Position numbers and translations under genes: made by a program
The notes under the pieces: generated by a model
The model's input: the letters and a program-made list of their open reading frames with translations, nothing else
The model's database searches: none
Told to the model about the DNA's origin: nothing
Assembly: GCF_011421635.1 (NCBI RefSeq)
Contig: NZ_WTLI01000013.1
Coordinates: forward strand, 31,006-95,005
Reading direction: 5' to 3'
Origin: Paenibacillus turpanensis
GTDB lineage: Bacteria > Bacillota > Bacilli > Paenibacillales > YIM-B00363
Length of the DNA: 64,000 bases
Part shown: one piece after another, positions 5,911 through 38,836 of the stretch
Position numbering within the stretch: position 1 is the stretch's first letter
Layout: the number at the start of each line of letters is the position of its first letter

Positions 5911-5977
5911 GATATTTCCTCCTTTGTTAGGTAAATTTCCCACACCTTCCATTGTTGTAATCGTTGCAATCAAAATG

Positions 5978-6138: not shown

Positions 6139-6146
6139 TTTCTCCC

Positions 6147-6299: not shown

Positions 6300-6541
6300 A
6301 AATTTTCGTCCTCGCTTTTCAGTACTTGAGTATTTCCATTAGCTGTTACTTGCCCTCTGCCCCCTAATTATAAGAAACAGTAACGGGCCATTCCTTATAA
6401 AGTTCAATTATTTCTAAACTGCCCCACTTGGAATGCCGCCGATCATCGTCTCCTTAGAACATTACAATGCATAAAGAACCTCTTCATCCGTAAATGAAAC
6501 GGTTTTGGAGGTTCTATCACTGAAGTATTTGCTTTTATCCC

Positions 6542-7729: not shown

Positions 7730-7845
7730 GGGGTGACGATCCTCTTTCCTTGAGGTACAATTCTACTTCTATTACCTTTTTTCATCCATCTCCTGCTCCA
7801 TCATAAAATTAACCAAGGGTTAATGCAATATATTGGTAAAATTAT

Positions 7846-9363: not shown

Positions 9364-11547
9364 TTATTCTTTATCCTGTTGCTTCAGCGCAGCCTTGAGC
9401 GCATCACCGAGGCTATTTGACAGCGAGGTATCGTCACTGAACTGCTCCACCAGCTTACGCTGCTGCTTGCGTCCCATTCGGCCACCGGCTCCGCTGTCCT
9501 CCAGCTTTTCGACGAATTGGCACGGACGGCATTGGAAGTACTTCCCTGCCTTGCCGTCATGGATTTCCATTCGCTTATGACATTGCGGACAGCGCCGGTT
9601 GGACATCGGGGGCTCCGCCGAACGGCGATAACCGCATTCGCGGTCCGAGCAAACCAGCGATTTCCCGCGTTTGCCCTTCACATCCAGCATCGGCTTGCCG
9701 CATTCCGGACAACGCGAATGGGAGATATTGTGCGGCTTGTACTCCTTCGTCTCCCGCTTCACTTCAGCAACCCAGTGCACAGCCTTCTCACGGATTCCGG
9801 CCATGAAGCGCGTCGGATCACCTTTCCCCTTCGCTATGCTTTCCAGCTGCTGCTCCCACTCCGCCGTCAGCTCGGGACGCCGCAGCTCATCGACCACCAG
9901 CTCGATCAGCTGCTTGCCTTTGCCAGTCGGAAGAAGCCGATTCTGCGCCCGCTCGATCGTATCGGTTGAAAGCAGCTTCTCAATGATGTCGGCGCGGGTT
10001 GCCGGTGTGCCAAGCCCGTACTTCTCCATCTTCGCGAGCAGCGAAGCTTCCGTATACCGGGCCGGCGGCTTGGTTTTCCCCTCGCGAACGCGAGTGCCGC
10101 GCAGCTCCAGCGTCTGACCCTGCGTCAGCGCCGGAAGCAGCTGCTCCGGCTCGCGATCACCCGCGTCACGGCCGGTTTCATCCTCGTCATCCTCCAGATC
10201 GGAGGATGAACCGCCGCCCCCTCCGAATGCTCCTTCGTAGACGGCTTTCCAGCCTTCATCCTTGCGAATTTTTCCCTTCGCGTAGAAGGAGTCGCCGCCA
10301 ACAGTAATGACCACGCTCGTTTCATCGTACCGATACGGAGGATAAAACAACGCAATGAAGCGGCGTACGATCAAGTCGTACAGCTTCCTCTCATCCGCAG
10401 ATAACGCCGACAAATTGACGAATTGCTCGGTCGGAATGATCGCGTGATGATCGGTCACCTTACTGTCATCGACAATACGCTTTGTTACCGGCAGCTGGCT
10501 TTTCAACAGCTTACGTGCGATCGACGCATACGGGCCGACCGCGATGCTTTCGAGCCTGCTTTTCAGCGTCGGCACCATGTCCGACGATAAATACCGCGAA
10601 TCCGTGCGCGGGTACGTCACGAGCTTATGCTGCTCGTACAGCCGCTGCAGCACATTCGACGTCTGCTTCGCCGAGAAGCCGAGCCGCTTGTTCGCGTCGC
10701 GCTGCAGCTCCGTCAAGTCGTACGCCTGCGGATGCGGCTCCGACTTTTCCGTCGTGCGCAGCTTCTCTACCTTGGCGCCGCGACCCTTCACGCGCGCGGC
10801 CACCGCTTCCGCTGCCGCACGCTCCCAGACGCGCCCGTCGTGGCCATCCTTCTCGCGCCACTGCGCTTGAAAGCCGGCAAAATCCGCGCTGACGCTCCAG
10901 TACGGCTTCGGCTGAAACTGCGCGATTTCCTGCTCGCGCTCCATCAGCATCGCAAGCGTCGGCGTCTGCACCCGGCCGGCCGCCAGCTGCGCGTTATACT
11001 TCGTCGTCAGGGCGCGGGTGACGTTCAGCCCGATCAGCCAATCCGCCTCCGCCCGGCATACCGCCGAAGCATACAAATTGTCGTAGGCTTTGCCCGGCTT
11101 CAGCGACGCAAACCCTTCGCGAATCGCCTTGTCCGTCTGCGACGAAATCCACAGCCGCTTAAACGGCTTCCGCCATTTCACCAGCTCCATGATCCACCGC
11201 GCCACCAGCTCCCCTTCGCGCCCGGCATCGGTTGCGATAATAAGCTCGGAAAGATCGTCGCGTTTACATAACTGCGAGACCGCGCGGAATTGATGCGACG
11301 TTTCCTTCAGCACCTTCAGGTTCATGCGCGCCGGCAGAATCGGCAGCTCCTCTAAATTCCATGTCCGGTATTTGGTATCGTAATCCTCCGGCTCCGCCAA
11401 CGTCACCAAATGACCGAGCGCCCAAGTGACGACATAGTTCGGCCCTTCCATATAGCTTTTATGCTTTTGTCCGCAGCCGAGCACACGGGCAATTTCTTTG
11501 GCCACACTTGGTTTTTCGGCTAATACGAGCGATTTCAACGACAACAC
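9364..11547 (-). CDS. topB: DNA topoisomerase III
   Basis: 727 aa. TOPRIM N-terminus MLSLKSLVLAEKPSVAKEIARVLG, topoisomerase IA core, and C-terminal zinc-ribbon repeats (CPECGKPM..., CPQCHKRM...). Confidence 0.9.
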   Translation of the reverse strand: MLSLKSLVLAEKPSVAKEIARVLGCGQKHKSYMEGPNYVVTWALGHLVTLAEPEDYDTKYRTWNLEELPILPARMNLKVLKETSHQFRAVSQLCKRDDLSELIIATDAGREGELVARWIMELVKWRKPFKRLWISSQTDKAIREGFASLKPGKAYDNLYASAVCRAEADWLIGLNVTRALTTKYNAQLAAGRVQTPTLAMLMEREQEIAQFQPKPYWSVSADFAGFQAQWREKDGHDGRVWERAAAEAVAARVKGRGAKVEKLRTTEKSEPHPQAYDLTELQRDANKRLGFSAKQTSNVLQRLYEQHKLVTYPRTDSRYLSSDMVPTLKSRLESIAVGPYASIARKLLKSQLPVTKRIVDDSKVTDHHAIIPTEQFVNLSALSADERKLYDLIVRRFIALFYPPYRYDETSVVITVGGDSFYAKGKIRKDEGWKAVYEGAFGGGGGSSSDLEDDEDETGRDAGDREPEQLLPALTQGQTLELRGTRVREGKTKPPARYTEASLLAKMEKYGLGTPATRADIIEKLLSTDTIERAQNRLLPTGKGKQLIELVVDELRRPELTAEWEQQLESIAKGKGDPTRFMAGIREKAVHWVAEVKRETKEYKPHNISHSRCPECGKPMLDVKGKRGKSLVCSDRECGYRRSAEPPMSNRRCPQCHKRMEIHDGKAGKYFQCRPCQFVEKLEDSGAGGRMGRKQQRKLVEQFSDDTSLSNSLGDALKAALKQQDKE

Positions 11548-25944: not shown

Positions 25945-26700
25945 TTAGCTAGATTTCTTTTCTTGTACGCAGTCGATCAGACCAGCAATTATAAGACCTA
26001 AACTACATCCGCTTATGGAAGACACCACGAGCATACCCAATTGATTTCCGCTCGAAAAGAACGCAAATTTGATAGAAACCGTTACAAAAGTGACGGCAAA
26101 AACGACCGCCCAGTACAAAGATTTCCGCGTGCTGCTATGTGAATGGAGGTGTTCGTTCGGCTGCTTCGATTTAAATAAAAATACGAGTAGAATCAGTGCT
26201 TCTGCTGCAAGTCCCACAATGGATAGGGAGTATTGTAATAGTTTATATCCGGGGAGATCGGGAAGCACTCTTTGCTGCAGGATTGGGAATTGGGTTACAA
26301 AGCCGCCCGATTGATGGGTAAACGCGTCAATCCCAATATGGCTATAAAAGCCAAGCGTTACCGAGGTGAGAAATACCAGTGCTTCACGGAGTCCGCCGAT
26401 TTTCCAAGGTAAGATAAGGGCGTACGCCCTTCGATCAAGACCAAACACGGAGGGCAAGTTTCGGGCAAGCGGCCGTTTGATAAAGTAGTGAAATAAAAAA
26501 GCAAATAATATACTAAGTGGAATTGCCTGCAGGAAAAGCCCCTTCGTCGTATGCCCAATGCTTTGGTATGGCTCCAAGGCAATGAAATATTCAAAATCCG
26601 GCGACATACTGCCGAGAATAATTCCTGTTAAGCTGATCCAGCGGGGAAACAGCCTTTTCACCGGTGCGGCATAGAGCGGATGAGCAAATGTAAACGGCAT
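25945..26700 (-). CDS. DUF4184 family membrane protein
   Basis: MPFTFAHPLYAAPVKRLFPRW...GSMSPDFEYF is the typical DUF4184 N-terminus. Confidence 0.7.
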   Translation of the reverse strand: MPFTFAHPLYAAPVKRLFPRWISLTGIILGSMSPDFEYFIALEPYQSIGHTTKGLFLQAIPLSILFAFLFHYFIKRPLARNLPSVFGLDRRAYALILPWKIGGLREALVFLTSVTLGFYSHIGIDAFTHQSGGFVTQFPILQQRVLPDLPGYKLLQYSLSIVGLAAEALILLVFLFKSKQPNEHLHSHSSTRKSLYWAVVFAVTFVTVSIKFAFFSSGNQLGMLVVSSISGCSLGLIIAGLIDCVQEKKSS

Positions 26701-26857
26701 AAGCTCCTCTCCTTCCTTTTTACAGTCGGATCCAGCAATTATTCATACAGTAGCATGAATCTACTAAAATGGAAATATAAACCTTGCGACTCCGTTTTTT
26801 GGAGAAAAGACAAAAAGGCTGCGCGACAAGTGTGCACGCAGCTTTATGAATTATCAT

Positions 26858-27745
26858 CTATTCAGGTATGTTCACAATGAACGAGACAAGAAAGACTTTT
26901 CCTTCACGCTGGAACTCCGCCCATATCTTATACTTCCCGCTCTTCGGGAAGTTCGCATCGAATTCAAGCTCCGGTCCAGTGCTGGCTTCGTCGTTCGGGT
27001 GGGTATGAATATACGAGGTAGAATCCTCACTCATGATGACAACATGCCCTTTGGACCCGATATAAAATTCAAGATCATGAATCGGCTTCTTCGTTTGCGC
27101 ATCCTCAAAACGGTACGTCAGCTGTACGGTTTCGCCTGCTTTTCGCTTATTAAATGACAATGAGATCTTCTTTCCGTCAACTACCTTCGTCAGCTCTTTA
27201 TCCGGTTGAATCGGCGGAGCCGTAGGGGCCTCTCCCTCGACATGCACCCATTGTTTATTGACGATGGCCGGCTTCCCTTTGCCCATTCCGGTCGGGACAA
27301 AGGTAGAAATCAGCTGGTAATCACCGCCCTTGGGAAAACGTGTCGTAATCATAAATTCGCCGTTTTCCTTCAGATGCGGATGGATATGCTGAAATACGGA
27401 CAAGTCCCGGCTAATGACGATCAGGTGCATTTTATCGACGTGGACGTCCTCGAACTCGGTAATCCTCTTTCCTTCCCCATTGTATGCGACGAGTGTTAGA
27501 TGCTCATCCCGTTTACTTTGCGGAGTACCGTGATCAAACGAAATTTTGAGGCTGACGTCATTTTCATCGTATTGCGTTTGCGAGCTTTTATTCGAAGCTT
27601 CACTGGCCTTGGCCTTCGCCTGCTCTGAAGCACTTTGTTCTTCCCTAGGAACCGGTGCCGCCGCAGGTTTGGAATCCGGTGCAGCCTGACAAGCGGTTAG
27701 CGTAAGCGCGATGCACATAACAACAATAGCCCACGTATTTTTCAA
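26858..27745 (-). CDS. Lipoprotein with two tandem ~110-aa beta-rich domains, each carrying an H-x-H-P motif (putative metal-binding)
   Basis: Lipobox LTACQA. Domain 1 ...FQHIHPHLKENGEF..., domain 2 ...YIHTHPNDEASTGPELEF..., both followed by GxYxLW-like strands. Confidence 0.65.
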   Translation of the reverse strand: MKNTWAIVVMCIALTLTACQAAPDSKPAAAPVPREEQSASEQAKAKASEASNKSSQTQYDENDVSLKISFDHGTPQSKRDEHLTLVAYNGEGKRITEFEDVHVDKMHLIVISRDLSVFQHIHPHLKENGEFMITTRFPKGGDYQLISTFVPTGMGKGKPAIVNKQWVHVEGEAPTAPPIQPDKELTKVVDGKKISLSFNKRKAGETVQLTYRFEDAQTKKPIHDLEFYIGSKGHVVIMSEDSTSYIHTHPNDEASTGPELEFDANFPKSGKYKIWAEFQREGKVFLVSFIVNIPE

Positions 27746-27764
27746 CGATCATCATCCTTTCGTT

Positions 27765-27877
27765 CAGTTACTCTTATTTTTTGAAAATATGCTAAGCAAA
27801 TAGGTTCTTAAAAAGGAGGAAAGTGTAAGGCCGATCGTCAGGTAAATAAACTGTAAAATGATTTGTACCCATTCCAT
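27765..27877 (-). CDS. Putative 36-aa hydrophobic peptide, translationally coupled (TGATG overlap) to the upstream gene
   Basis: MEWVQIILQFIYLTIGLTLSSFLRTYLLSIFSKNKSN. RBS GGAGGA 6 nt upstream. Confidence 0.3.
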
Positions 27878-28164
27878 CAGCTGTCCTCCTTTACCTTGCC
27901 CGACAGCTGCTGCCGCAGAAAATCGGGTACGTTTCTTTCCAAGGCCGAATTCACCCGTGCAAACAAATAGAGGAACACGAGAACAAAGATTAAAAACAAT
28001 CCAATAATCAAAATAGCAAGCACAATTCCAAGCGGCCCACCGGAAAGCGACCCCATGTAAATTGGGGCGTCACGGAAAAAGAGCATCACCAGCAGCTCAA
28101 AAAAGGCGGAAAACGCAAGTCCGATAAAGGAAACTTTAACGGTCTTGAGCCATATTGTTTTCAA
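27877..28164 (-). CDS. Small two-TM membrane protein
   Basis: RBS GAGAGGAGGGG then TTG start (LKTIWLKTVKVSFIGLAFSAFFELLVMLFF...). Confidence 0.5.
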   Translation of the reverse strand: MKTIWLKTVKVSFIGLAFSAFFELLVMLFFRDAPIYMGSLSGGPLGIVLAILIIGLFLIFVLVFLYLFARVNSALERNVPDFLRQQLSGKVKEDS

Positions 28165-28183
28165 ACGATCCCCTCCTCTCATG

Positions 28184-29461
28184 TTAGGAGGGCCCGCTAT
28201 CATGCACTGTCATTTGGCTGGAAGGTGCTTGTGGCGGTTTCTTCCGCCCTCTTCCAGCACGGCTTCTCTCTATGGAGCCAGGCCATATCGAAAGGAAAGC
28301 CATACCGACTAAGCCAACACTCAGCGTAATCAGAAATAAAAGAATGAGAGCTCCAAAAGCGTGAAAGAAAAAGACACCCCAGCCTGAAGAGATTTCAGGA
28401 TTAAAGATGTCAAAAGAGAAAACCGCTGAGCTTGCTGAGGAGTCAGAGGATGCGTTTGAAGCTTGTGAGGAGCTCTGCCCGGAACTGGTAGAATTATCTC
28501 TGCCGGAGGAGCTCGATGAACCCGATGAGCCGCTGCCGCTCATGGAGCCACCTCCGCCACTACCGCTCATGTCCATTCCACTCATGGAGCCACCTCCGCC
28601 CATGGAGCCCATACCTCCCATACCCATCATCATCATCATGCCACCCATCCCGCGCATTCCACCCATGCTCATGCCGCTCATGGAACCGCCTCCGCCGCTA
28701 CTGCCGCTCATGTCCATTCCGCGCATCGCGCCGCCGCCGCCGCTACCGCTCCTGTCCATTCCGCTCCTCGCGCCGCCTCCGCCGCTCCCGCCGCTCATGT
28801 CCCTCCCGCTCATCGCGCCGCCGCCGCCGCTACCGCTCCTGTCCATTCCGCTCCTCGCGCCGCCTCCGCCGCTCCCGCCGCTCATGTCCCTCCCGCTCAT
28901 CGCGCCGCCGCCGCCGCTACCGCTCCTGTCCATTCCGCTCCTCGCGCCGCCTCCGCCGCTCCCGCCGCTCATGTCCATTCCGCTCATGGAGCCACCGCCG
29001 CCACTACCGCTCATGTCCATTCCGCTCATGGAGCCGCCTCCGCCGCCACTGCCGCTCATGTCCATTCCGCGCATCGCGCCGCCGCCTCCGCCGCCGCTGC
29101 CGCTCATGTCCATTCCGCTCATCGCGCCGCCGCCGCCGCCGCCACTGCCGCTCATGTCCGTTCCGCTCATCGCGCCGCCGCCTCCGCCGCCGCTGCCGCT
29201 CATGTCCATTCCGCTCATCGCGCCGCCGCCTCCGCCGCTGTTAGACCCGCTGCTGTTCGAGGAGGAAGAACTGCCGCCGCCGCTTGAACTCTGCGTCGCG
29301 CCGCCCCCCGTTCCCATCCCAGGCAGTCCTACTGCTCCATTGGCAGATGACGATGCTGCCCCACCTTGTGGAAACAATAAAAAGAGCAGTAGATACAAGA
29401 ACAAAACGATAACAATGGCGCCAGCTGTATAGCCCGTTATTCGAAGCCATATGTTTTTCAA
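28184..29461 (-). CDS. Gly/Ser/Met-rich repeat membrane protein (N- and C-terminal TM helices flanking a ~330-aa low-complexity region with M-x-x-M-x-M motifs). Putative Cu(I)-binding.
   Basis: Repeats SGMDMSGSGGGGGGAM..., MGGMRGMGGMMMMMGMGGMGSMGGGG. The reverse strand carries the codon-consistent frame. Confidence 0.7.
   Translation of the reverse strand: MKNIWLRITGYTAGAIVIVLFLYLLLFLLFPQGGAASSSANGAVGLPGMGTGGGATQSSSGGGSSSSSNSSGSNSGGGGGAMSGMDMSGSGGGGGGAMSGTDMSGSGGGGGGAMSGMDMSGSGGGGGGAMRGMDMSGSGGGGGSMSGMDMSGSGGGGSMSGMDMSGGSGGGGARSGMDRSGSGGGGAMSGRDMSGGSGGGGARSGMDRSGSGGGGAMSGRDMSGGSGGGGARSGMDRSGSGGGGAMRGMDMSGSSGGGGSMSGMSMGGMRGMGGMMMMMGMGGMGSMGGGGSMSGMDMSGSGGGGSMSGSGSSGSSSSSGRDNSTSSGQSSSQASNASSDSSASSAVFSFDIFNPEISSGWGVFFFHAFGALILLFLITLSVGLVGMAFLSIWPGSIERSRAGRGRKKPPQAPSSQMTVHDSGPS
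28741..29001. repeat. Three perfect in-frame 87-bp tandem repeats, embedded in a ~700-bp array of degenerate 48-51-bp repeats (about 28540-29230)
   Basis: Unit gctaccgctcctgtccattccgctcctcgcgccgcctccgccgctcccgccgctcatgtccctcccgctcatcgcgccgccgccgcc begins at 28741, 28828 and 28915. Encodes GGSGGGGARSGMDRSGSGGGGAMSGRDMS x3. Confidence 0.85.
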
Positions 29462-29595
29462 CCGTGTTTCCCCCCTCTCTACACCCCATCATAATCCCCA
29501 CTTATGAATTACTTGTTGAGACAATCGTTTTTCCAAAAAATCCACAGCTGCTCCACGCCTTTCTGTTACATTCCAAATTACGGAGGTGAAATAAC

Positions 29596-31512
29596 ATGGT
29601 GCGCAAATGTGTGAACCGATTTCTTGATAAAATGGAAGCCATAAAAAGAAAAGTGACGCGATGGTTCGGTATTTTCCTCCTCATCACAGTCACCTTCATC
29701 GTTATTATTTTACTGCTGATTTTAACTTGGGCACTTCGTCAGTTAGCGCCTCCTTCCGCCTACTCGGCTCAGCCCCCTGCAGCTGCAGCAACTCAGATCG
29801 ACCGGCAGGTACAGTCCGGACAAAACAACGAAGGCCAGTCCGCTCCGCAGACCCGAACTCATCCGCCAACAAGCATGTCTGGCAATGAGACAGAGTTAGA
29901 CGGCTCTACAGCTGAGGCCAATAGTCAAGTAGAGAAGCCTCTCCCCGAAGATTTGCTTGGCACCGCCCAAAAGTTAAGTCAGGATTCTACGGCGGATCTC
30001 CAGGATTCGCCGCTGCTTGGAGAGCGCACGCTTGCCGAAAGAACCATAACAGACGACGGGACCATCGAGTTTCGGCTTTCCGCCGCACCGGAGACCGTTA
30101 ACATCAGTCCTACGCTCCCCTTTGAAGCATGGACCTATAACGGCATGCTGCCCGGCCCTATTATCCGGGTAACAGAAGGAGAACGCGTCCGCATTGTTTT
30201 TGAAAATCACGTTCCCGGCATCGGCACAGCCGTCCATTGGCATGGCATTCCAACTCGCAATGAGGTTGACGGCGTTCCTGAGCTTACCCAACCCAGCGTA
30301 AATACCGGCGAATCGTACGTATATGAATTTACTGCCTCTCCCTCCGGAACGTATTCCTACCATGCTCACGGGGCCAACAAAGGTGCCGAACAGCTCGATC
30401 GAGGGTTATATGGACCGTTTATTATCGATCCCGCTGAACCGACATGGCTTCCGAAAGCAAGTGTGGAATGGATTCTGAGCGTCGATGAAATGCAGATTCC
30501 CGGAGCCGGATCCGCCCCGCCGGCGAGCGACGGCAACCTGATGGATCAAGAAATGATGCAGCGGATGATGCCCCGTGCAATTCTCGGCTCCGCCGACGTG
30601 TACAATGTGTTTATAATAAACGGTAAGCGAAGCCCGCAGCAGCCGCTGGTGGCCCGTGCGGGAGAATGGATCCGCATTCGACTGCTGAATTTCGGGTACC
30701 AAAAGCACAGGTTCACGATTGACGGGCTGAAGCTGTTCGCCACGCACATGGACGGAAGAGCGCTGCCCGCAGCACAGCCGGTTGAAATCCTGGAGATTGC
30801 CCCATATGAGCGGCTTGATGCCTACATTTACGGCATGACCCCAGGAACCTACACATTAAAGGATATCGACCCGGGCCACAGCGAGTCCGGTATGAAAGCA
30901 AAGATCCGGCTTCAACCGCCGAAAGGGCCGAACCAGACCGAGGACATGGATAATTTGAAAAATACACCGTCCGCTACCGGGAGTCCTCTCCCCATTCCCC
31001 GTATCAAAACAGCGGATATCCCTGAAGGAGCGCCGCGTTACCAGCAGGTTGCCGCCGGAGTACCCGGCCCCGATAATACCACGTACGACCGTATTTATAA
31101 TATGACGCTTGGCATGACCATGGATGACGGGCAAATGGCTTGGGCGATTAACGGCCGGAGCTGGGACTCCTTTGAGGATACAGAGCCTTATCTTCTGAAA
31201 AAAGGAGAAAAAGTACGTATTAACCTTACGAACATGTCTCCGGAAAGTCATCCGATGCATCTTCACGGACACTTGTTTCATATCGTCGAAATCAACGGAC
31301 AGCCGATTGCTGAGCCTTGGCTGCTCAAGGATACGATCAATCTTCGTCCGATGGACCGTATTTCCATTGCCTTTACAGCCGACAACCCCGGAGACTGGTT
31401 CTTCCACTGCCATCAAGAGCTGCATGCCGACCACGGCTTGAAAACCTATTTCACCTACGAAAAGATAGAAACCCGGAATAAAGACGCGGGCGGGACGCCA
31501 GCAGATCGCTGA
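29596..31512 (+). CDS. Multicopper oxidase (CueO/CopA-like), N-terminally membrane-anchored, with a Met-rich segment
   Basis: RBS GGAGGTGA. Copper-site motifs HWHG, HAHG, HPMHLHGH and HCHQELHADHGL, all four present. Met-rich insert LMDQEMMQRMMP. N-terminal TM FGIFLLITVTFIVIILLLILTWAL. Confidence 0.9.
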   Translation: MVRKCVNRFLDKMEAIKRKVTRWFGIFLLITVTFIVIILLLILTWALRQLAPPSAYSAQPPAAAATQIDRQVQSGQNNEGQSAPQTRTHPPTSMSGNETELDGSTAEANSQVEKPLPEDLLGTAQKLSQDSTADLQDSPLLGERTLAERTITDDGTIEFRLSAAPETVNISPTLPFEAWTYNGMLPGPIIRVTEGERVRIVFENHVPGIGTAVHWHGIPTRNEVDGVPELTQPSVNTGESYVYEFTASPSGTYSYHAHGANKGAEQLDRGLYGPFIIDPAEPTWLPKASVEWILSVDEMQIPGAGSAPPASDGNLMDQEMMQRMMPRAILGSADVYNVFIINGKRSPQQPLVARAGEWIRIRLLNFGYQKHRFTIDGLKLFATHMDGRALPAAQPVEILEIAPYERLDAYIYGMTPGTYTLKDIDPGHSESGMKAKIRLQPPKGPNQTEDMDNLKNTPSATGSPLPIPRIKTADIPEGAPRYQQVAAGVPGPDNTTYDRIYNMTLGMTMDDGQMAWAINGRSWDSFEDTEPYLLKKGEKVRINLTNMSPESHPMHLHGHLFHIVEINGQPIAEPWLLKDTINLRPMDRISIAFTADNPGDWFFHCHQELHADHGLKTYFTYEKIETRNKDAGGTPADR

Positions 31513-31545
31513 ATGGTGTCAATAGCTGCACCGGCGGAAATACTA

Positions 31546-31579
31546 AAAAAAGGAAAGGGGCGTTTACCCTTTCCTTTTA
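31546..31579. terminator. Bidirectional terminator between the convergent MCO and encapsulin genes
   Basis: aaaggaaaggg-gcgtttac-cctttcctttt hairpin with A and T tracts. Confidence 0.6.
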
Positions 31580-32425
31580 CGCTTTGACGAGAGTGCACAC
31601 TGCCGTGGGACGCTTAATGCGGGGAACTAAGCATTCATATACGCGGTAATAGTAGTTCATATTATCATCATTTAAAAAAGCAACGTCGACGTCCTGGGCA
31701 ATGGCGAGATCGACATTTTGCCCGCCTGTCGCAACCAGTACCCCTAGCCCGTTCTTGATCTGCGAGGATTGGTAAATGCCTTCCGTAAACAAATCCCGAA
31801 TATGCTCAATCTCCAGCAAATTTGAGCCCGGCTGCACTTGATGAAGCTGTGCGTACGCATCGGGCGACAAGGCCAGTGCGAACGGTCCGTTATGGCCGTT
31901 TTTCAAGAGACGGTTGCGCGCGTGAACAATATCTTGAAACCCTCGCCCTGCCTCAGACCAATTTCCGCATGGCTGCACCTCTCTGCCGTCCACATTCATC
32001 AAGCCTGGAATGTTGAGCGGAGGATGGCCGTTAAAAATCAACTCATCCTCAAGCAGTGCCACATCCGCCGTAGCGCTTACCGCCGCCGAATAGTCGAGCG
32101 GATTGCCCGTTTCTCTGGCCTGCTCGATATCTCTCCAATACAGCACAAAATCCTTATACAAGATCGGAATGGTCAACGTTTCCTTTTCATCCGGCTTAGC
32201 AACGCTAATCTTTTCCCCGTGGAGACTAATGTTTCCTGGCTCCGGCTCCAAATATACCGGGTTGGAGACAGATTGGGCCCCAGCGCCGATCGGCCCATAA
32301 ATGTCAAGAAACTTCGCGACAACAATATGCTCCCTCGCCGTATCGACTACCGTATCGATCAAGCGATCCCATTGCTTTGCCGTAAGCGGCCCGCGGGAGG
32401 AGACTCGTTTCCGTTTATTGCTCAT
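31577..32425 (-). CDS. Family 1 encapsulin nanocompartment shell protein (HK97 fold, linocin M18-like)
   Basis: 282 aa. RBS AAGGGGGAA. Aligns along its full length with the T. maritima encapsulin (PLTAKQWDRLID..., ...ALLEDELIFNGHP..., ...LVATGGQNVDLAIAQDVDV..., C-terminal ...YYRVYECLVPRIKRPTAVCTLV). Confidence 0.85.
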   Translation of the reverse strand: MSNKRKRVSSRGPLTAKQWDRLIDTVVDTAREHIVVAKFLDIYGPIGAGAQSVSNPVYLEPEPGNISLHGEKISVAKPDEKETLTIPILYKDFVLYWRDIEQARETGNPLDYSAAVSATADVALLEDELIFNGHPPLNIPGLMNVDGREVQPCGNWSEAGRGFQDIVHARNRLLKNGHNGPFALALSPDAYAQLHQVQPGSNLLEIEHIRDLFTEGIYQSSQIKNGLGVLVATGGQNVDLAIAQDVDVAFLNDDNMNYYYRVYECLVPRIKRPTAVCTLVKA

Positions 32426-32457
32426 CGGTGTTCCCCCTTATCTAACCAAAGATGATG

Positions 32458-32682
32458 TCACGGATCATTTTCCGCCGAATCCGCGGCTTCCGCCGGTTGT
32501 TCCCTAGGTTTATTCGATTTCTTTTTTTCGGAAAAGAAGTACATAAGAACGACGAAATAGAAGGCGGAAATATCAAACGATGTCTTGTAGTTAAAAATCT
32601 GATTAATGATGGGCAGCTTATACGTGAAAAACCCGAGTAGGATGCTTAAACTCAGGAGGATAAACTTCTTAACCGTTAGCAT
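32458..32682 (-). CDS. Small membrane protein (74 aa) with polar C-terminal tail
   Basis: Two hydrophobic segments. Weak RBS. Position and strand are consistent with the operon. Confidence 0.4.
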   Translation of the reverse strand: MLTVKKFILLSLSILLGFFTYKLPIINQIFNYKTSFDISAFYFVVLMYFFSEKKKSNKPREQPAEAADSAENDP

Positions 32683-32703
32683 CGGATCCGGCCCAGCTCG
32701 CCA

Positions 32704-33066
32704 TCATCGATGTGTGGTGCGGCGTCCTCTTCTTGGGCCGCGATCGTCATCCTCGTCGTCATAATCGTCGTCCTCGAATAAACGCACATCATGCCGTTCG
32801 AAGTATTTAATCGTAATGCCGATCAACCCGACAATCAGCCCGATCACTGCCAAGATAATTAACGTGATAAATATAAAATTAAATATGGCAATAACCGCGC
32901 CCGCCCCGGAGAACGCTGACCCGCTGCTCGAGCTGCTTGAACCGCCTCCCGATACGCCGCTATAACCAACAAACCCTACGAATAGAAATTCGATGAATCC
33001 GAAAATCAAAATGGCTACGACCGAATATACGGTAAGCTTCAAAAATGGTCTCTGCTGTCGATTCAT
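32704..33066 (-). CDS. Membrane protein with Gly/Ser linker and poly-acidic C-terminal tail (EDDDYDDEDDD)
   Basis: RBS GGAGGGAG, two TM segments, acidic tail suggests cation binding. Confidence 0.55.
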   Translation of the reverse strand: MNRQQRPFLKLTVYSVVAILIFGFIEFLFVGFVGYSGVSGGGSSSSSSGSAFSGAGAVIAIFNFIFITLIILAVIGLIVGLIGITIKYFERHDVRLFEDDDYDDEDDDRGPRRGRRTTHR

Positions 33067-33145
33067 AGCTCTCCCTCCTTTGCTACCATCATAGCCGACA
33101 CTTATGGAGGGACAATGGAGAAGCCATTTTTATAACAAAATCGGG

Positions 33146-33583
33146 CTAAAATCGGTCTGGGAAATATTTCTGAATCGCGCGTACGAATAGCATTGCGATT
33201 CCGGCTAGCAGCGTAAGAAGAAAGAGAACGGTCAGACTGTAGAATAAGAAGTCGATCACCTGGACAAATAAGACGTTAGCCAATCCCAGTCCTCCGCGAA
33301 AGCCCATCATGGTGTGAGTTGTGAATGCCTGGATAAAAACCAAGTCCATAATGCCAAAAAACACAATGCCGACCAGTAGATAAATGACCCACGTTAACCA
33401 GCTACCGAGCCCCCAACCGCCGCTGTCTTTTGTATTGCGTTCTTGTCTTGGTCCCGACACACCCGATACCTTACCCCATAACGCCTGAATACCGCCAATA
33501 AACAGTGCTGCCAGCACCAAAAAGATGAGAATGATAAAGAAGATACTTAAAGCTGCGCTGATCAGGTGCCCGTTTGCGTTCAT
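33146..33583 (-). CDS. Four-TM membrane protein
   Basis: Start ATG in ATGA overlap with the upstream gene stop. MNANGHLISAALSIFFIILIF... Confidence 0.55.
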   Translation of the reverse strand: MNANGHLISAALSIFFIILIFLVLAALFIGGIQALWGKVSGVSGPRQERNTKDSGGWGLGSWLTWVIYLLVGIVFFGIMDLVFIQAFTTHTMMGFRGGLGLANVLFVQVIDFLFYSLTVLFLLTLLAGIAMLFVRAIQKYFPDRF

Positions 33584-33993
33584 TTGCGAAGACCTCCTTT
33601 TCCTCTCCCCTTCCGATCCGTTCGTGGCAGCCAAAGTATGACCCATACAATACAGGTCCCCGTAAACACTGCCGTCACAACAACAAGAAGCAGTGACAGG
33701 ACGTAGTTAATCGGGTCAAGTACCGGGTTCGCCATCCCGGACATGTGCATATGCATATCCATCCCCGTTAGCTCCTCGCACATCCGCATGCAAACCTCGA
33801 TCATAGGGGTAAGGGTGTGAAATGAATTCATCATAGTGTGACCGAACCACATCATCATCGCCATCGACAACATATCCTTCATCGACGGCTGCGCACGGTA
33901 TTCCGGCTGCACGAAGACCAACACCGCCGCCCCTGTATACAGCAGCACTATCGCCAGCATCCAATGCCCGAAGCTTGACCGCTTCGGCTTCAT
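33580..33993 (-). CDS. Met/His-rich membrane protein
   Basis: ATGA-coupled start. MKDMLSMAMMMWFGHTMMNSFHTLTPMIEVCMRMCEELTGMDMHMHMSGMANP. Confidence 0.55.
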   Translation of the reverse strand: MKPKRSSFGHWMLAIVLLYTGAAVLVFVQPEYRAQPSMKDMLSMAMMMWFGHTMMNSFHTLTPMIEVCMRMCEELTGMDMHMHMSGMANPVLDPINYVLSLLLVVVTAVFTGTCIVWVILWLPRTDRKGRGKGGLRK

Positions 33994-34304
33994 TTTGCCG
34001 CACCCAACCGTTTGCGTAAGCAACAGCCAACGATAAGGCTAAGAGGCAGAAGCCCAAACGATACGAGTGTGACACTCCAAAACAAGGTGCTCCAACCACC
34101 CGCAGGGCCGGACATGCCCATCAGCTGCCGCATCATGGAAGACATCAGCGTGCCGGATTGACAGGCTTGCATCATGCTGGTCATGTACTGCATCGCCTGT
34201 TCAGGGGGGAGTACCGGATTCACAAGCGATAACAAGACGGAGGCGGCAAGAAAGGCAAATAAAAAAGAAAGCGACCGGACGAATAGAACGAACCAATGAT
34301 TCAT
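33990..34304 (-). CDS. Met-rich membrane protein
   Basis: MQYMTSMMQACQSGTLMSSMMRQLMGMSGPAGG between TM segments. Confidence 0.55.
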   Translation of the reverse strand: MNHWFVLFVRSLSFLFAFLAASVLLSLVNPVLPPEQAMQYMTSMMQACQSGTLMSSMMRQLMGMSGPAGGWSTLFWSVTLVSFGLLPLSLIVGCCLRKRLGAAK

Positions 34305-34346
34305 TCCAACGGAATCACCTCCTCTCCTTTAGATAAAAGTAGGGGC

Positions 34347-34829
34347 TTATTGTTTTCTACCTCTGCGTTTTGGCTTAACCAAAGGCAGACGATACAAGTG
34401 GCGCTTTTGCACCATATGCCAGACGATAACCGCCATCAGTACAAATGCGAGCAGCTCATGAAGCATAAAGCTTACAACCGCCACGCGGAAGGGAACCGCC
34501 GGCATAAACCAAAGAATCACTCCTGTTATCACTAACACGAAGGTGATCGCAAAATTAAACCCTGCAAAGCCGCTGCTGCCAATCGGCAGCCATTTTCGGA
34601 CCATCGGCTTCTCTGTGATCAATTGCTTTACCTCGTAGATCGCAACCCAAGCAACCCAAATCACCCACACAAAGCCCACCAACCGGTGCACGGTATCCAT
34701 TAGCGGGAAGTGATTCCCCATCATCCAGCTAAACCTTCCTCCAATAATCGAAAACCCGCTGAGCAGCAGGAAAAAGGTTAGCACACCCCATATCCAATGC
34801 GCGATGAAATCAAACGGGATTGGTCTCAA
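34347..34829 (-). CDS. Cytochrome b561 family protein (PF01292-like di-heme membrane cytochrome)
   Basis: TTG start inside a TTGA overlap, preceded by RBS AAAGGAGGA. Conserved His in TM helices (IAHWIWGV, TVHRLVGF, MLHELLAFVLMAVIVWHM) as in E. coli CybB. Confidence 0.7.
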   Translation of the reverse strand: MRPIPFDFIAHWIWGVLTFFLLLSGFSIIGGRFSWMMGNHFPLMDTVHRLVGFVWVIWVAWVAIYEVKQLITEKPMVRKWLPIGSSGFAGFNFAITFVLVITGVILWFMPAVPFRVAVVSFMLHELLAFVLMAVIVWHMVQKRHLYRLPLVKPKRRGRKQ

Positions 34830-35800
34830 GATTCTTCCTCCTTTCCGGCTTCCTCTTTTGTGATTTCCTGCTTCTTTTGTGATCGGCTCTTTTGCAGCTG
34901 CTTCTTCGCCTTCGAAGATTTGGTAATCCCCCGATCTTTGATCACGCTTACCACATACGCAATGATACATATGAATAGCACGAGCAGCAGGATCATGAGG
35001 ATTATTTTAAAGGCAATCACCATAGTCTCGTAGAAGCTTCCTTGAGCCTTGGGGCCACCGGTGTAATCAACACTGACGTTGGACCGCATGGAGCCCATAT
35101 TCATACCGTTCATGGCCCCGCTGCCGGAGACGGAGCTCTTGTTCGTATTCATGCCCGACATATCAGATGAACCGCTGCCCATGTTCATCTGAGAGCCGAC
35201 TATATTTTGTGCGTCGCCCATATCCATAGGAGAGCCGGAAGAACTCTCCATCCCTCCGCTCGTTGTCCCTGTGCCTTCCATGGCATTCATTCCGCGCCCC
35301 TGCTTGCCCGCTTGCCCGCTTCCGGTATCCTCATTCGTGTTCCGATTGCCGTCCACACCGTTATTCTGGTTGTTTGCGTTTCCCTGCGCTTCCATTCCGC
35401 CCGGTGCATTCTCCACGCTTTGCTGCAATAAATCAATCGCCTGCCGTACAAGCCGGAGCGCTTCCAGCTGCTGCTGCTTCCAAGTCTTCTGCTCTTGGCT
35501 TGCTTCCGAGCTGCCAGAATTCTGACCGGAGGCTGCCGCATCCCCTTCCGACGCTTCTGCCCGATTTGATTGTTCATGGGCCGAATCGGGCTGCTCCTCT
35601 TTTGTCATCCCTTCCATCGAGCCTTGCTGCTGCCCGGCCTCAGTTCCCTCCTGCTTCGGCTCTGTCTGCTGCCTTGAGGCCTGAGCGCTGTCCTGCATCT
35701 CTGACATTCCTTGTTGTTCGGCAGATACAGAACCCCCCAGGAAAAGCAGCAAGCAAACGGAGCACCACAATCCTTTTAGCAGCTGCTTCCGCTTCATCAT
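34826..35800 (-). CDS. Secreted Gln/Gly/Ser/Met-rich low-complexity protein with C-terminal TM anchor
   Basis: Signal peptide MMKRKQLLKGLWCSVCLLLFLGGSVSA. ...SPMDMGDAQNIVGSQMNMGSGSSDMSGMNTNK...GAMNGMNMGSMRS. C-terminal TM plus Lys-rich tail. Confidence 0.6.
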   Translation of the reverse strand: MMKRKQLLKGLWCSVCLLLFLGGSVSAEQQGMSEMQDSAQASRQQTEPKQEGTEAGQQQGSMEGMTKEEQPDSAHEQSNRAEASEGDAAASGQNSGSSEASQEQKTWKQQQLEALRLVRQAIDLLQQSVENAPGGMEAQGNANNQNNGVDGNRNTNEDTGSGQAGKQGRGMNAMEGTGTTSGGMESSSGSPMDMGDAQNIVGSQMNMGSGSSDMSGMNTNKSSVSGSGAMNGMNMGSMRSNVSVDYTGGPKAQGSFYETMVIAFKIILMILLLVLFICIIAYVVSVIKDRGITKSSKAKKQLQKSRSQKKQEITKEEAGKEEES

Positions 35801-36732
35801 TCCCCCTCCTTCCGCTTATCTAATGGATTTGACATTGGGAGTGTAAAAGTAAATCGGCAGCCTCCTGCCTGATCACATTCGACAAAGACATGACCGCCTT
35901 GTAGCATGATCAAATGCTTTACAATACTCAGCCCAAGGCCGCTTCGGCCAGATCGTGTCCCCTGATGCAGCTGAACGCTCCTTTCAAACACACGATCCAT
36001 TTGTTCCTCCGGAATGCCCGGACCTGTGTCGCGCACCGTTGTCACAGCGTGCTGTTTTATCCTATCGACGCGAACCTCGACGGTGACCGAACCGCCATCC
36101 GGCGTATGCCGAATTGCGTTCTGAAGTAAATTGTGCAGCACCTGACGGATACGCTCCCGATCACCAAGCACATAGATCCCGTACGAGGCAGGCACCAAAT
36201 ATCGGACCGAAACTCTTTTTTTGGCTCCAGATAGCCTTTCGTCCACGGCAACATCCCTTACGATCTCGGTAAGATCAAAGGAATGGCACGAAACACGAAA
36301 CCACGGGATTTGTTCATCGGAAGCCGTTTCGATATCTTCAACCAACCGAGAAACATGCATCGCTTTTTCATAAATGATCTGCAGCTCCTGTTCCGTCATA
36401 GGAATCAAATGGTCGTTTAACGCTTCGAGACGGGTACAAAGCACATGAACGACATTGCGCAGCTCGTGGGAAACTTCCTCATAAAAATGCACCTTTTCCC
36501 GATTGCTCACCTGATGCATCAGCTCTAAACGCCTATCGTAATACCCGCTTACGGCATAAGAGGACAATAATGCGAAAACAAGACTGGCCACAAGGCATTC
36601 CGGTACCCTAACATAAGAAAAAGAAGTCCACGATCCGGCCATTGTGTTATGCTCCATCACAAAGCATAGCACCGTGGAACAGATAGACACCCCAAATATC
36701 GCAACCGTCATTTTGTACTTGGGTTTAAGCAT
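35797..36732 (-). CDS. Sensor histidine kinase (HisKA plus HATPase_c), two N-terminal TM segments
   Basis: H-box SHELRNVVHV, N/G boxes NLLQNAIRHT, DTGPGI, GLGLSIV. Confidence 0.85.
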   Translation of the reverse strand: MLKPKYKMTVAIFGVSICSTVLCFVMEHNTMAGSWTSFSYVRVPECLVASLVFALLSSYAVSGYYDRRLELMHQVSNREKVHFYEEVSHELRNVVHVLCTRLEALNDHLIPMTEQELQIIYEKAMHVSRLVEDIETASDEQIPWFRVSCHSFDLTEIVRDVAVDERLSGAKKRVSVRYLVPASYGIYVLGDRERIRQVLHNLLQNAIRHTPDGGSVTVEVRVDRIKQHAVTTVRDTGPGIPEEQMDRVFERSVQLHQGTRSGRSGLGLSIVKHLIMLQGGHVFVECDQAGGCRFTFTLPMSNPLDKRKEGE

Positions 36733-37421
36733 TGCAGCCTCTGAAATTGATACCCTTCTCGAAACACGGTAACGATATATTGAGGGTTTTTAGGATCTTC
36801 TTCGATTTTGCTTCTTAAATTTTTGATATGGCTGTCCAGGGTTCTATCCATGCCTTCGTAAAAATGACCGTGTACCCGTTCGATCAACTGCTGTCTCGAA
36901 AGAATCTGCCCCGCATGTTCCATGAAAACCCGCAGCAGCTTAAATTCAATCGGCGTAACCTCTACCTCGTGGCCTCCCACCCATACGCGTTTTTGTTTCT
37001 TTTCAATGCGGATATCGCCGACCATGATATTTTCCAGCTTAGGTTCCGGCATCCAAACCCGCCGCAGCATCGCCTTTATACGGGCAACCAGCTCCCGTGG
37101 TCGAAACGGCTTTGTGATGTAATCATCCGCTCCGGCCCCAAGACCTCTTAGAATATCCTCCTCCTGATTGCGACCTGAAAGGATAATGATCGGGGTGTTG
37201 GAACGGGATCGAATATCTTTGCATATCTCGATACCGCATGCATCCGGAAGACGAATGTCAAGCAATACCAATATTGGCTGTACTCGGTCAAATGCCGCCG
37301 TTGCCTCTGCTCCGTTATAAGCAATCTCCACTTTGTATCCTTCACCCTTTATATATGTCTTAATAGTTTGGGCAAGCAGTCGCTCGTCTTCCACTAGCAA
37401 GATCGTATTGGGCGTGCTCAT
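36708..37421 (-). CDS. OmpR-family response regulator
   Basis: ILLVEDERLL...LLDIRLPD receiver, C-terminal winged helix (TVFREGYQF). Overlaps the HK gene. Confidence 0.9.
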   Translation of the reverse strand: MSTPNTILLVEDERLLAQTIKTYIKGEGYKVEIAYNGAEATAAFDRVQPILVLLDIRLPDACGIEICKDIRSRSNTPIIILSGRNQEEDILRGLGAGADDYITKPFRPRELVARIKAMLRRVWMPEPKLENIMVGDIRIEKKQKRVWVGGHEVEVTPIEFKLLRVFMEHAGQILSRQQLIERVHGHFYEGMDRTLDSHIKNLRSKIEEDPKNPQYIVTVFREGYQFQRLQCLNPSTK

Positions 37422-37453
37422 TATAACCCTCCTCTAGGTGTATTGAACTTGTC

Positions 37454-37478
37454 GTTCCGTGGTGCAAGAATAGGAACG
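37454..37478. promoter_or_regulatory. Inverted repeat CGTTCC-N13-GGAACG upstream of the response-regulator gene
   Basis: Lies in the 236-bp divergent intergenic region between the two-component operon and the cupredoxin-like gene. Confidence 0.3.
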
Positions 37479-37657
37479 CAAGATTAAAGTGAAATCCCCC
37501 TTTCATCCCGATTCTATGACTTCCTTCCAACTCTTGAATTTATTTGTGCTATACCTATGAGACAAATATTTTGATTATTCTCCATCACTTCTCCACAACT
37601 AGCTGGTATTGTTTTCCACAGGTTCGTCAGGAATTCTTGTAAACTATTTTCGGAGGA

Positions 37658-38032
37658 GTGTGCAAAATGTTCATGAAAAAAGCCAAAACGTTGATTCTGC
37701 CTGCTATGCTGATGCTATTGTTTTCGCTGCTTGCCGGTTGCTCCAGCGAGCCTGCCAAGCCGATTGATATCGTCATTACGGCCAAAGACATGATGTTTAC
37801 GCCGGACCGCATTACCGTCGATAAGGGAAGCTCTATCAAGCTGACCTTCCGCAACCAAGAAGGTGTGGTTAACGATTTAATGATGAAAGGAACCGATGTC
37901 ATGATACAAGATGTGGGGCCGAATCAGGAGAAATCAACCACATTTACCGCTGACCGCGCGGGGACCTTTACGATCATGACCTCCGCCCCAGGCATGGAGA
38001 ATATGACAGCGGATTTTATTGTCAAAGAGTAA
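37658..38032 (+). CDS. Cupredoxin-like lipoprotein lacking canonical Cys/His copper ligands, Met-rich
   Basis: RBS GGAGGAG. Lipobox LLAGCSS. Beta-sandwich pattern ...IVITAKDMMFTPDRITVDKGSSIKLTFRNQ...TFTADRAGTFTIMTSAPGMENM.... No His, and no Cys beyond the lipobox. Confidence 0.6.
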   Translation: MCKMFMKKAKTLILPAMLMLLFSLLAGCSSEPAKPIDIVITAKDMMFTPDRITVDKGSSIKLTFRNQEGVVNDLMMKGTDVMIQDVGPNQEKSTTFTADRAGTFTIMTSAPGMENMTADFIVKE

Positions 38033-38045
38033 GACCTTCAGACAC

Positions 38046-38078
38046 AAAAAACGGGGGCTCCCCTGAGCCCCCTCTTAA
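38046..38078. terminator. Bidirectional terminator
   Basis: aaaaaacgggggctc-ccctg-agcccccTCTT hairpin. Minus-strand reading is followed by TTTTTT. Confidence 0.5.
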
Positions 38079-38290
38079 TCGCGAACTTGTATTATTCGTC
38101 ATCCACATCCATCAAAACAACTTCAAAAATCGTCGTTTCATTACTTTCGAATGGCTTCTCGCTGCAGATGGTTTATCCAGCCAAGTGGTGTTAAAACAAA
38201 AGGTTTCAGCAACCCCACCTGTGTCAACAGCTGACTCCATGCAAAATTCTTGAATGACGTTTTAAACCTTGGGTCACCGCTGGTCGCCGA

Positions 38291-38836
38291 TTAACTGCTC
38301 TCCCATACTTCATGTAAATCTGCTTTTATGAAGTCGGGAATCGCTTGCTCCCTTATCAACCGTTGCAGCAACTCACGATTTGGCGCCGCACCGCCGGACT
38401 TCAAGTATTTCAATAGCAAATCCGCCTTCGCCTTTCTCTGCATTAAAGAATAAGCGACAAACCACAGTTCAGGGCTGGAGAGCCGAACTCCATTCCAGCT
38501 TCTGGAATCGACCAAAGGGACGCGAAAAATACCTGTTTCGGTATGTAATGCAAATCCACCGATCAAATCCACATTAATATCCGGAATACAGATTCGGTAT
38601 TGACTCGCAAACGGAGGGTCACCACTGTGTTCCTCTATCCAAGGAAACGCTTCAATGCTGCGAAGCAGGTGATCCTTGGGACAGTCAACCAGCACATCCC
38701 AATCATTCACCTGATCCGTTAGCTTCATCGAATAAAGCAGGGCGCTCCCGCCAAGGTTGTAGCTGATCTTGTTTTTCTCTAGCGATTCGATAAGTGGTAT
38801 TAGTCTTTTGATATTGGGTGTCATGAAATCATCCAA
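38291..38836 (-). CDS. Nucleotidyltransferase-fold protein
   Basis: GGSALLYS...DWDVLVD NTase signature. Confidence 0.6.
   Translation of the reverse strand: MDDFMTPNIKRLIPLIESLEKNKISYNLGGSALLYSMKLTDQVNDWDVLVDCPKDHLLRSIEAFPWIEEHSGDPPFASQYRICIPDINVDLIGGFALHTETGIFRVPLVDSRSWNGVRLSSPELWFVAYSLMQRKAKADLLLKYLKSGGAAPNRELLQRLIREQAIPDFIKADLHEVWESS

Follow-up and report, generated by a model that had tools for sequence, protein, structure and literature searches.

Disordered segments rich in methionine (Met) are emerging as the Cu(I)-recruiting parts of copper-detoxification machineries, and have so far been studied in Gram-negative periplasmic or outer-membrane proteins. The Met-rich domain of the multicopper oxidase CueO is dispensable for free Cu(I) but serves to recruit Cu(I) that is strongly chelated; activity correlates with the length of this domain, whose size, like its Met number, is "highly diverse" across species (PMC11494321, PMC12041951); the Cu5 site of CueO is made of two Met and two Asp residues (PMC12041951). 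The disordered N-terminus of PcoB is required for copper resistance, stabilises PcoA and tolerates swaps and truncations (PMC12509749), the disordered protein SilE works as a metal sponge (PMC5008109), and human Ctr1 contains a Met-only MxMxxM motif with selectivity for Cu(I)/Ag(I) (PMC9117721). A Met-rich, disordered, copper-binding segment located beside a multicopper oxidase is then a known principle. Here, we describe a gene of Paenibacillus turpanensis that is found in a stretch of 64,000 nucleotides (hereafter the window; contig NZ_WTLI01000013.1, positions 31,006 to 95,005) and that encodes a Gly/Ser/Met-rich two-pass membrane protein, divergently transcribed from a gene encoding a membrane-anchored multicopper oxidase. 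On balance, we lean towards the view that this protein displays an extracytoplasmic, doubly tethered and disordered loop that would bind Cu(I)/Ag(I) and work together with the oxidase.

CueO (from E. coli or Hafnia alvei), PcoA and CopA share with this locus a flexible Met-dense segment tied to a multicopper oxidase, and the Met and Asp ligands of the CueO Cu5 site are similar to the M-x-x-M-D-M unit of the P. turpanensis loop. In CueO and PcoA, this segment is an insert in the oxidase chain itself, over the T1/Cu5 site. In contrast, the Met-dense segment is found here on a separate, divergently transcribed two-pass protein that has no Cu-oxidase domain; it is far longer (313 amino acids including 45 Met), consists almost purely of Gly, Ser and Met in near-identical tandem units, and belongs to a Gram-positive envelope with no outer-membrane-bounded periplasm. 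PcoB/CopB also display a poorly conserved, length-tolerant and membrane-tethered disordered region, encoded beside a multicopper oxidase gene (PMC12509749), but the PcoB region is His-dependent and sits on an outer-membrane beta-barrel, whereas the loop described here is His-free and has both ends in the cytoplasmic membrane; no sequence homology was found between PcoB/CopB and our protein. SilE and PcoE are disordered multi-site Ag(I)/Cu(I) binders acting as buffers (PMC5008109), as we propose for the loop, but SilE is soluble, uses motifs with both His and Met and becomes helical upon binding, while our protein is tethered, His-free and too Gly-rich for helices. Membership of the SilE/PcoE family was rejected, as no homology was detected and the loop has no His. 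The ectodomain of Ctr1 resembles the loop in that extracellular Met-only motifs (MxMxxM or MxxM) are located next to a membrane segment (PMC9117721), but Ctr1 imports copper into eukaryotic cells as a trimer whose second membrane helix carries an MxxxM selectivity filter, whereas the genetic context described here is one of export and oxidation. Membership of the Ctr1 family was also rejected, considering that Ctr1 has three membrane helices and our protein only two hydrophobic segments, the C-terminal one of which contains a single Met and lacks MxxxM. The format that appears to be new is thus a separate Gram-positive two-pass protein with a His-free loop of 45 Met, near-identical in-frame units and a nearly orphan family. 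Stand-alone Met-dense proteins were also seen near distant homologues of the oxidase, in a Gemmatimonadaceae contig (L003, positions 844-1218, 124 amino acids) and in Hyphomicrobiaceae contigs (L038/L051, positions ~7467-8378): one is a lipoprotein with GMMRDSM repeats and the other a secreted protein with MPGMMG...EMMQRMMP. They are unrelated to our protein in sequence, carry a signal peptide or a lipobox and have neither a hairpin nor long perfect DNA repeats, which suggests that the pairing of a stand-alone Met-dense protein with an oxidase evolved repeatedly.

In the 425-amino-acid protein (G136 S94 M47), residues 8-30 and 361-393 form two hydrophobic segments that flank the low-complexity loop (Table 1). 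This loop counts G125 S83 M45 A18 D15 R12, has no His and no Cys, and other residues are scarce. A preliminary description of the locus, made from the DNA letters alone, had presented the product as a Gly/Met-rich membrane protein whose central ~330 residues consist almost entirely of Gly, Ser and Met, with an MMMMM run. This portrait holds: the run is present, 81% of the 313 loop residues are Gly, Ser or Met (~95% once Ala, Asp and Arg are included), and the two hydrophobic segments are accompanied by a basic N-terminal flank (MKNIWLR) and by a strongly basic C-terminal tail (ERSRAGRGRKK), while the loop side of the first membrane segment carries no charge. Since the positive-inside rule places these basic ends in the cytoplasm, both termini are probably cytoplasmic and the loop would stand on the outer face of the membrane. 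From its composition, this loop is expected to be disordered. MxxMxM motifs occur ten times in it, and its stretches AMSGMDMSGSGGGG and GMGGMMMMMGMGGMG are candidate Cu(I)/Ag(I) ligands. The open reading frame (ORF) at 28184-29461 is a genuine gene. Searches of its product against Pfam, NCBIfam and PDB sequences gave zero matches, and the exact protein, tried with six alternative start codons, was absent from a collection of 15 billion proteins in which its neighbours WP_166242993.1, WP_166242997.1, WP_166242999.1 and WP_166243007.1 are present; it may have been left unannotated, annotated in another way or removed by filtering.

Relatives of this protein are few. Searching 1.84 billion representative proteins by phmmer with its C-terminal 96 residues identified P0060, a protein of 183 amino acids from Tuberibacillus sp. 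Marseille-P3662 (E-value of 3e-5), which was also the only sequence recovered by a profile of the membrane ends; the other four of the five phmmer matches were repeat or low-complexity proteins and were discarded as spurious. A whole-protein homology search found no relatives, its 8000 candidates being swamped by low-complexity words, and two metagenome scans, using an alignment of the small proteins or of the membrane ends, gave zero matches. A further relative was found by synteny in two sister-organism assemblies (L055 and L056, from SRR30181647 and SRR30181648, with 4 single-nucleotide polymorphisms in 4.3 kb), where it lies 5' of the closest homologue (45% identity) of a lipoprotein encoded in the P. 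turpanensis operon. This truncated gene encodes ...MSGMSGGGSS...GMGMGMGMMMMMGMGGMG..., followed by the C-terminal membrane block known from our protein and by a tail reading MTAHDT, so that an MT[VA]HD ending is common to this relative and to the P. turpanensis protein. The N-terminal segment and the C-terminal block were found in our protein, in P0060 and in the L055/L056 gene. Their membrane ends align with 35-39% identity and 21 invariant columns: the family N-terminus reads MK..WL[KR] and its C-terminal block reads ..P..S.G.G.FFFxAF..L..LFL..L..GL.G before the basic tail. The W-L-basic start is seen in MKNIWLR, in MKDPWLK of P0060 and in MKNPWLR of a 251-amino-acid Tuberibacillus paralogue. 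Within the loop, the only conserved element is the cluster [MRK]MMGMGG, found in all four sequences, the 251-amino-acid copy included (MMMMMGMGG, MRMMMGMGG or MMKMMGMGG), ~45-85 residues N-terminal of the C-terminal membrane segment, and the rest cannot be aligned. Since the loop extends over ~100 residues in P0060 and over more than 300 in P. turpanensis while the Met cluster is kept, the array of MSGMDMSG units represents an expansion specific to this lineage, around a methionine core that is older. In the Tuberibacillus contig (L064), the two Met-rich copies are encoded at 5553-6308 (251 amino acids, adjacent to the oxidase gene) and at 10001-10552 (P0060, full-length), on either side of a modABC-like transporter operon; in the 251-amino-acid copy, the N-terminal segment and the MMKMMGMGG cluster are present whereas the C-terminal membrane segment is missing. 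The upstream regions of both copies share sequence blocks, indicating that the promoter was duplicated too.

The genetic context points to copper. The surroundings of the gene include the oxidase, a His-triad lipoprotein, a two-component system, a cupredoxin and further Met-rich membrane ORFs. The oxidase matches Cu-oxidase_3 and Cu-oxidase_2 with E-values of 1e-37 and 1e-36, respectively, as well as the copper-resistance CopA subfamily TIGR01480 with an E-value of 7e-54, below the cut-off of that model, and it contains a short Met-rich segment of its own (EMMQRMMP). A scan of genome contigs with this oxidase returned relatives of at most 36% identity in other phyla and no sister Paenibacillus locus. 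Downstream of our gene, the small two-pass protein of the same operon has a counterpart of 86 amino acids, with 45-48% identity, encoded directly 3' of the corresponding hairpin gene in both L055 and Tuberibacillus. The lipoprotein that follows, which is 100% identical to a protein on record for P. turpanensis, displays two H...HxHP triads, one in each Ig-like domain, which are invariant in an alignment of 31 homologues; its structural model (predicted local distance difference test, pLDDT, of 86.6) shows two Ig-like beta sandwiches, for which a PDB fold search gave generic Ig-like matches only. Homologues of this lipoprotein are encoded directly 3' of copA at five Paenibacillus-type loci (L053, L058, L060, L062 and L063). 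A copZ-like HMA gene lies 5' of copA in four of these five (all except L062), three of which also have a csoR-type repressor gene, and at a sixth locus (L057) the lipoprotein homologue is surrounded by heavy-metal ATPases and a two-component system. The family looks like a group of uncharacterised extracytoplasmic copper-handling lipoproteins. Its members lack a Pfam assignment, except for weak YtkA-like or HMBD (PF19335) matches in the more distant ones. Exact look-ups of the oxidase and of the lipoprotein in the contig index gave no record.

With the oxidase, the lipoprotein and the copA loci in view, the suggestion made in the preliminary description that the repeats may bind Cu(I) or Ag(I) is consistent with the gene context. 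Metal binding by the loop, and likewise a partnership with the oxidase, are what composition and neighbourhood would predict. In the mechanism that we propose, the ~ten MxxMxM(+Asp) motifs and the MMMMMGMGG cluster would use methionine thioethers to bind Cu(I) and Ag(I), so that the loop could buffer Cu(I) at the membrane surface as a tethered trap or antenna; it may then pass Cu(I) to the oxidase, which would convert it to Cu(II), to the His-triad lipoprotein, or to both. The function that a Met-rich domain performs in cis in CueO/PcoA, and the disordered N-terminus in PcoB, would in this way be taken over by a protein acting in trans. If this is true, a "Met antenna" can be provided in trans and doubly anchored in a Gram-positive membrane. 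The gene would also be a modular test object, since unit number, Met-to-Arg variants and the MMMMMGMGG core are naturally laid out in it.

Table 1. Features of the Met-rich hairpin gene, its operon and its neighbourhood (window positions)
Feature	Position	Strand	Details
Coding sequence of the 425-amino-acid Gly/Ser/Met-rich two-pass membrane protein	28184..29461	-	TTG start; AGAGGGGGG, resembling a ribosome-binding site, 8 nt 5'
N-terminal membrane segment, residues 8-30	29372..29440	-	Preceded by MKNIWLR; hydropathy
Low-complexity loop, residues 33-345, predicted extracytoplasmic	28427..29365	-	Composition, positive-inside rule
Repeat array, 13 units of 42/45/48 bp (14-16 amino acids)	28541..29221	-	Codon-by-codon parsing
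Perfect period-87 tract, 253 bp, 2.9 copies	28724..28976	-	Double unit of 42+45 bp encoding ARSGMDRSGSGGGG-AMSGRDMSGGSGGGG
Methionine cluster MSGMSMGGMRGMGGMMMMMGMGGMGSMG, residues 261-288, within unit 12	28598..28681	-	Alignment of relatives
Conserved juxtamembrane block and C-terminal membrane segment, residues 346-393	28283..28426	-	FFFxAF...LFLxxL..GL.G
Basic tail, predicted cytoplasmic	28187..28282	-	ERSRAGRGRKK...MTVHDSGPS
Co-operonic 95-amino-acid two-pass membrane protein WP_166242993.1	27877..28164	-	Starts 19 nt past the stop of the 425-amino-acid protein
Lipoprotein (lipobox LTAC) with two Ig-like beta-sandwich domains	26858..27745	-	131-bp gap from the 95-amino-acid protein gene
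Divergent intergenic region between the operon and the oxidase gene	29462..29595	.	134 bp, presumed shared promoter region
Membrane-anchored multicopper oxidase WP_166242997.1, 638 amino acids	29596..31512	+	N-terminal anchor; four Cu-ligand motifs all present
120-amino-acid two-pass hairpin paralogue, short Gly/Ser loop without Met	32704..33066	-	hhalign probability 95.5%, E-value 1.4e-8
Small membrane ORF with Met-dense non-membrane segment	33580..34023	-	
Small membrane ORF WP_166243007.1 with Met-dense non-membrane segment	33990..34304	-	
324-amino-acid protein with signal peptide, Q/E/S/G/M-rich region, C-terminal anchor and Lys-rich tail	34826..35800	-	Region: MNMGSGSSDMSGMNTNK...GAMNGMNMGSM

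The array that encodes most of the loop bears the marks of a recent expansion. Tandem Repeats Finder (TRF) reported, over 28670-29240, a period of 45 with 12.8 copies (79% matches) and a period of 87 with 6.3 copies (90% matches), and parsing by codons resolved units following the motif [AS][MR][SR]G[MTR]D[MR]SG and a Gly/Ser spacer, with the methionine cluster of unit 12 reading GMRGMGGMMMMMGMGGMG. The tandem array that had been announced is thus real but was mis-measured: of the three supposedly identical 87-bp copies at 28741-29001, the first two are indeed identical while the third has mismatches at 5 of its 87 positions, the perfect tract is the one that spans 253 bp, and the degenerate units, once given as 48-51 bp long, measure 42, 45 or 48 bp. 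The inference of a very recent expansion stands, since a perfect periodic tract of 253 bp cannot arise by chance: a recent in-frame duplication certainly took place within the array. Units 1 and 3, whose DNA is identical, indicate further duplications of two units. Since all unit lengths (42, 45, 48 and 87 bp) are multiples of three, changes in copy number alter the length of the protein and leave its frame intact. We propose that the array is a recent, lineage-specific expansion of the loop, which may have occurred by unequal recombination or by slippage of one- or two-unit blocks; repeat dynamics may then tune how long a metal-binding disordered region is. A phase-variable contingency locus was considered and rejected, as the units are in frame inside a coding sequence and give no on/off switching.

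Units in which Arg replaces Met do exist, but they do not reflect the ongoing diversification that they had been taken for. The array contains eight AGG Arg codons, and every one of them falls within the perfect tract 28724-28976, a distribution indicating that three ATG-to-AGG changes arose once, in one double unit that was then copied. What is seen is thus the amplification of one Met-poor variant rather than diversification at many units. On the opposite strand, ORFs at 28407-29432 and 28516-29244 are present, as had been noted, and they are compositional artefacts, as had also been said: the array has a G+C content of 72%, compared to 49% for the window, and four of the six frames (the coding frame and all three of the plus strand) have no stop across it. 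Plus-strand coding across the array was thus rejected.

Variation of the repeat number between strains, which the preliminary description expected, is plausible, and the great differences in loop length among relatives support it indirectly. Only one assembly of P. turpanensis is on record, a draft with a contig of 153 kb here, and the protein collection contained no exact or clustered copies of our protein and thus offered no cluster of repeat-number variants for comparison. Could the array itself, or its copy number, result from mis-assembly, so that the true gene would be shorter, longer or interrupted? The source is a draft contig, the perfect tract is longer than common read and k-mer lengths, and our protein is missing from the protein collection in which its neighbours are found. 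In addition, the short-read contigs of L055 and L056 both stop within the homologous array, at one and the same base, showing that such arrays defeat short-read assembly, so that the copy number in our draft contig could be wrong. However, the intact frame across the array links two conserved membrane ends in the same order as in the 183-amino-acid Tuberibacillus relative, and degenerate units flank the perfect tract on either side, which together argue that the gene is real and that only its copy number is doubtful. We thus consider an assembly artefact very improbable.

Several observations weigh against a copper-binding loop that works with the oxidase. The loop has neither His nor Cys residues, unlike SilE/PcoE and the N-terminus of PcoB. 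The double unit that was amplified last has lost three of its six Met to Arg and is the Met-poorest one, so that the last expansion brought no gain in Met density and looks neutral. That the oxidase is a cuprous oxidase is only assumed, and a promoter/terminator scan together with a search for shared k-mers found no copper-responsive operator and no consensus sigma-70 site in 29462-29595. The lipoprotein reached only 19.1 bits against the YtkA-like family PF13115 (cut-off of 25.9; E-value of 0.0022), over 22 residues. Finally, the family is tiny (three organisms), which makes conservation statistics weak, and the paralogous hairpin at 32704-33066 has a Met-free loop, so that the conserved function of the fold may lie in its membrane segments. 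This last point leads to the most serious alternative, in which the protein is a structural subunit acting through its membrane segments and the loop is a tolerated, drifting spacer whose Met residues come from motif amplification. Such a passive linker would fit with the conservation of the paralogous hairpin across families (69% identity), with a loop length that goes from ~25 to more than 300 residues, with the Met-poor variant copied by the most recent duplication, and with two further ORFs that are weak candidates for the same layout (27877-28164, with an hhalign probability of 48%, and 33146-33646, with 22.5%). It would not explain why the MMMGMGG cluster is kept in all four subfamily sequences despite unalignable surroundings, why MxxMxM recurs ten times in the loop, or why other ORFs of the island are also Met-rich outside their membrane parts. 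We regard this alternative as rather unlikely but substantial, and the others, mis-assembly included, as lesser.

Among these lesser alternatives, the loop may serve copper acquisition, as a Ctr1-like antenna that would concentrate scarce Cu(I) to metallate the oxidase, the cupredoxin or respiratory oxidases via the lipoprotein. CuA assembly in B. subtilis draws on YtkA-domain proteins, namely CtaK and, with its C-terminus, YcnJ (PMC13344008), which the weak YtkA-like match of the lipoprotein brings to mind, and the MxxMxM units mirror the Mets motif of Ctr1 (PMC9117721). Yet the lipoprotein homologues are found in copA export loci, which are detoxification operons and several of which have csoR and copZ, and no CopC/CopD-type importer was found among the scanned island ORFs, making acquisition improbable. 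The dense Met residues of a flexible, exposed loop could also act as a sacrificial sink for oxidants (reactive oxygen species, hypochlorous acid or copper-driven radicals), to be reduced again or turned over afterwards, and a cytochrome b561 gene is indeed present in the cluster; alternatively, the loop could be a flexible, mildly hydrophobic, chaperone-like segment for unfolded envelope proteins, its GMGGM pattern resembling the C-terminal tail of GroEL, which is (GGM)n. Considering that the scanned ORFs of the island include no methionine sulfoxide reductase gene and that all recognisable neighbours point to copper, roles of this kind seem least probable of all.

Returning to the copper-binding loop, its gene belongs to a larger conserved assembly. 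A ~10-kb cluster is collinear between the window (31577-37421 on the minus strand, plus 29596-31512) and the Tuberibacillus contig L064 (1-10819). Its order is a Met-rich anchored protein, cytochrome b561, small membrane proteins, the 120-amino-acid hairpin, a 74-amino-acid ORF and a family-1 encapsulin (WP_166242999.1, at 31577-32425), followed by the convergent multicopper oxidase and then by the Met-rich hairpin, which is divergent and accompanied by its small two-pass protein. Since Tuberibacillus belongs to another family of Bacillales, this collinearity indicates a conserved system rather than a chance neighbourhood. The presence of the oxidase and the encapsulin beside the hairpin family was checked in Tuberibacillus, as the L055 contig ends within the array. 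No DyP, ferritin-like or IMEF cargo gene was found near the encapsulin gene, a search of the window ORFs revealed no canonical encapsulin targeting peptides near the shell gene, and the literature gave no precedent for an encapsulin associated with a multicopper oxidase or with copper, nor for Gly/Met-rich Paenibacillus proteins. One may speculate that our protein serves as the outer antenna, capturing copper, of a so far undescribed envelope system of distantly related Bacillales (Paenibacillus and Tuberibacillus), in which several paralogous hairpins, Met-rich membrane proteins, cytochrome b561 and the oxidase would be coupled to a family-1 encapsulin without recognisable cargo gene. Copper or another soft metal might then be routed or sequestered into, or at, a nanocompartment docked to the conserved, charged cytoplasmic tails of the hairpins. 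We judge this extension unlikely as it stands. An encapsulin without recognisable cargo gene in such a conserved linkage is nevertheless an independent lead, more unusual than the Met-rich protein itself.

The paralogous hairpin of this cluster is 69% identical to a Tuberibacillus protein of 123 amino acids, with which it shares the cytoplasmic tail DDEDDDR..RRxRRTTHR. Comparison of our protein with the downstream 95-amino-acid protein was not significant by BLASTP, and hhalign matched the N-terminal segment only; paralogy with 33146-33646 is not claimed. When the 120- and 95-amino-acid hairpins were searched against plasmids using tblastn, zero matches were obtained.

The minus strand of the island also encodes an OmpR-type response regulator with its histidine kinase (35797-37421), the cytochrome b561, the 74-amino-acid membrane ORF and the encapsulin, and a cupredoxin lipoprotein gene is divergent from the response regulator gene. 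The 324-amino-acid protein at 34826-35800, which has no Pfam match, is the second Met-rich tethered protein of the island; its ORF shares 145 nt with that of cytochrome b561, and one of the two starts is thus probably shorter. An Rfam scan of 26000-38500 gave zero matches. A loose element, CTTATG(A/G)...GAGACAA, was seen in 29462-29595, 33067-33145 and 37422-37657; it is not statistically supported and may be a response-regulator site. The Met-dense segments of the two small membrane ORFs at 33580-34023 and 33990-34304 read MLSMAMMMWFGHTMM...TGMDMHMHMSGM and QAMQYMTSMMQACQSGTLMSSMMRQLMGMSG, respectively, and a Tuberibacillus ORF of 219 amino acids is an apparent fusion of counterparts of 33580-34023 and of the N-terminal part of 33146-33646.

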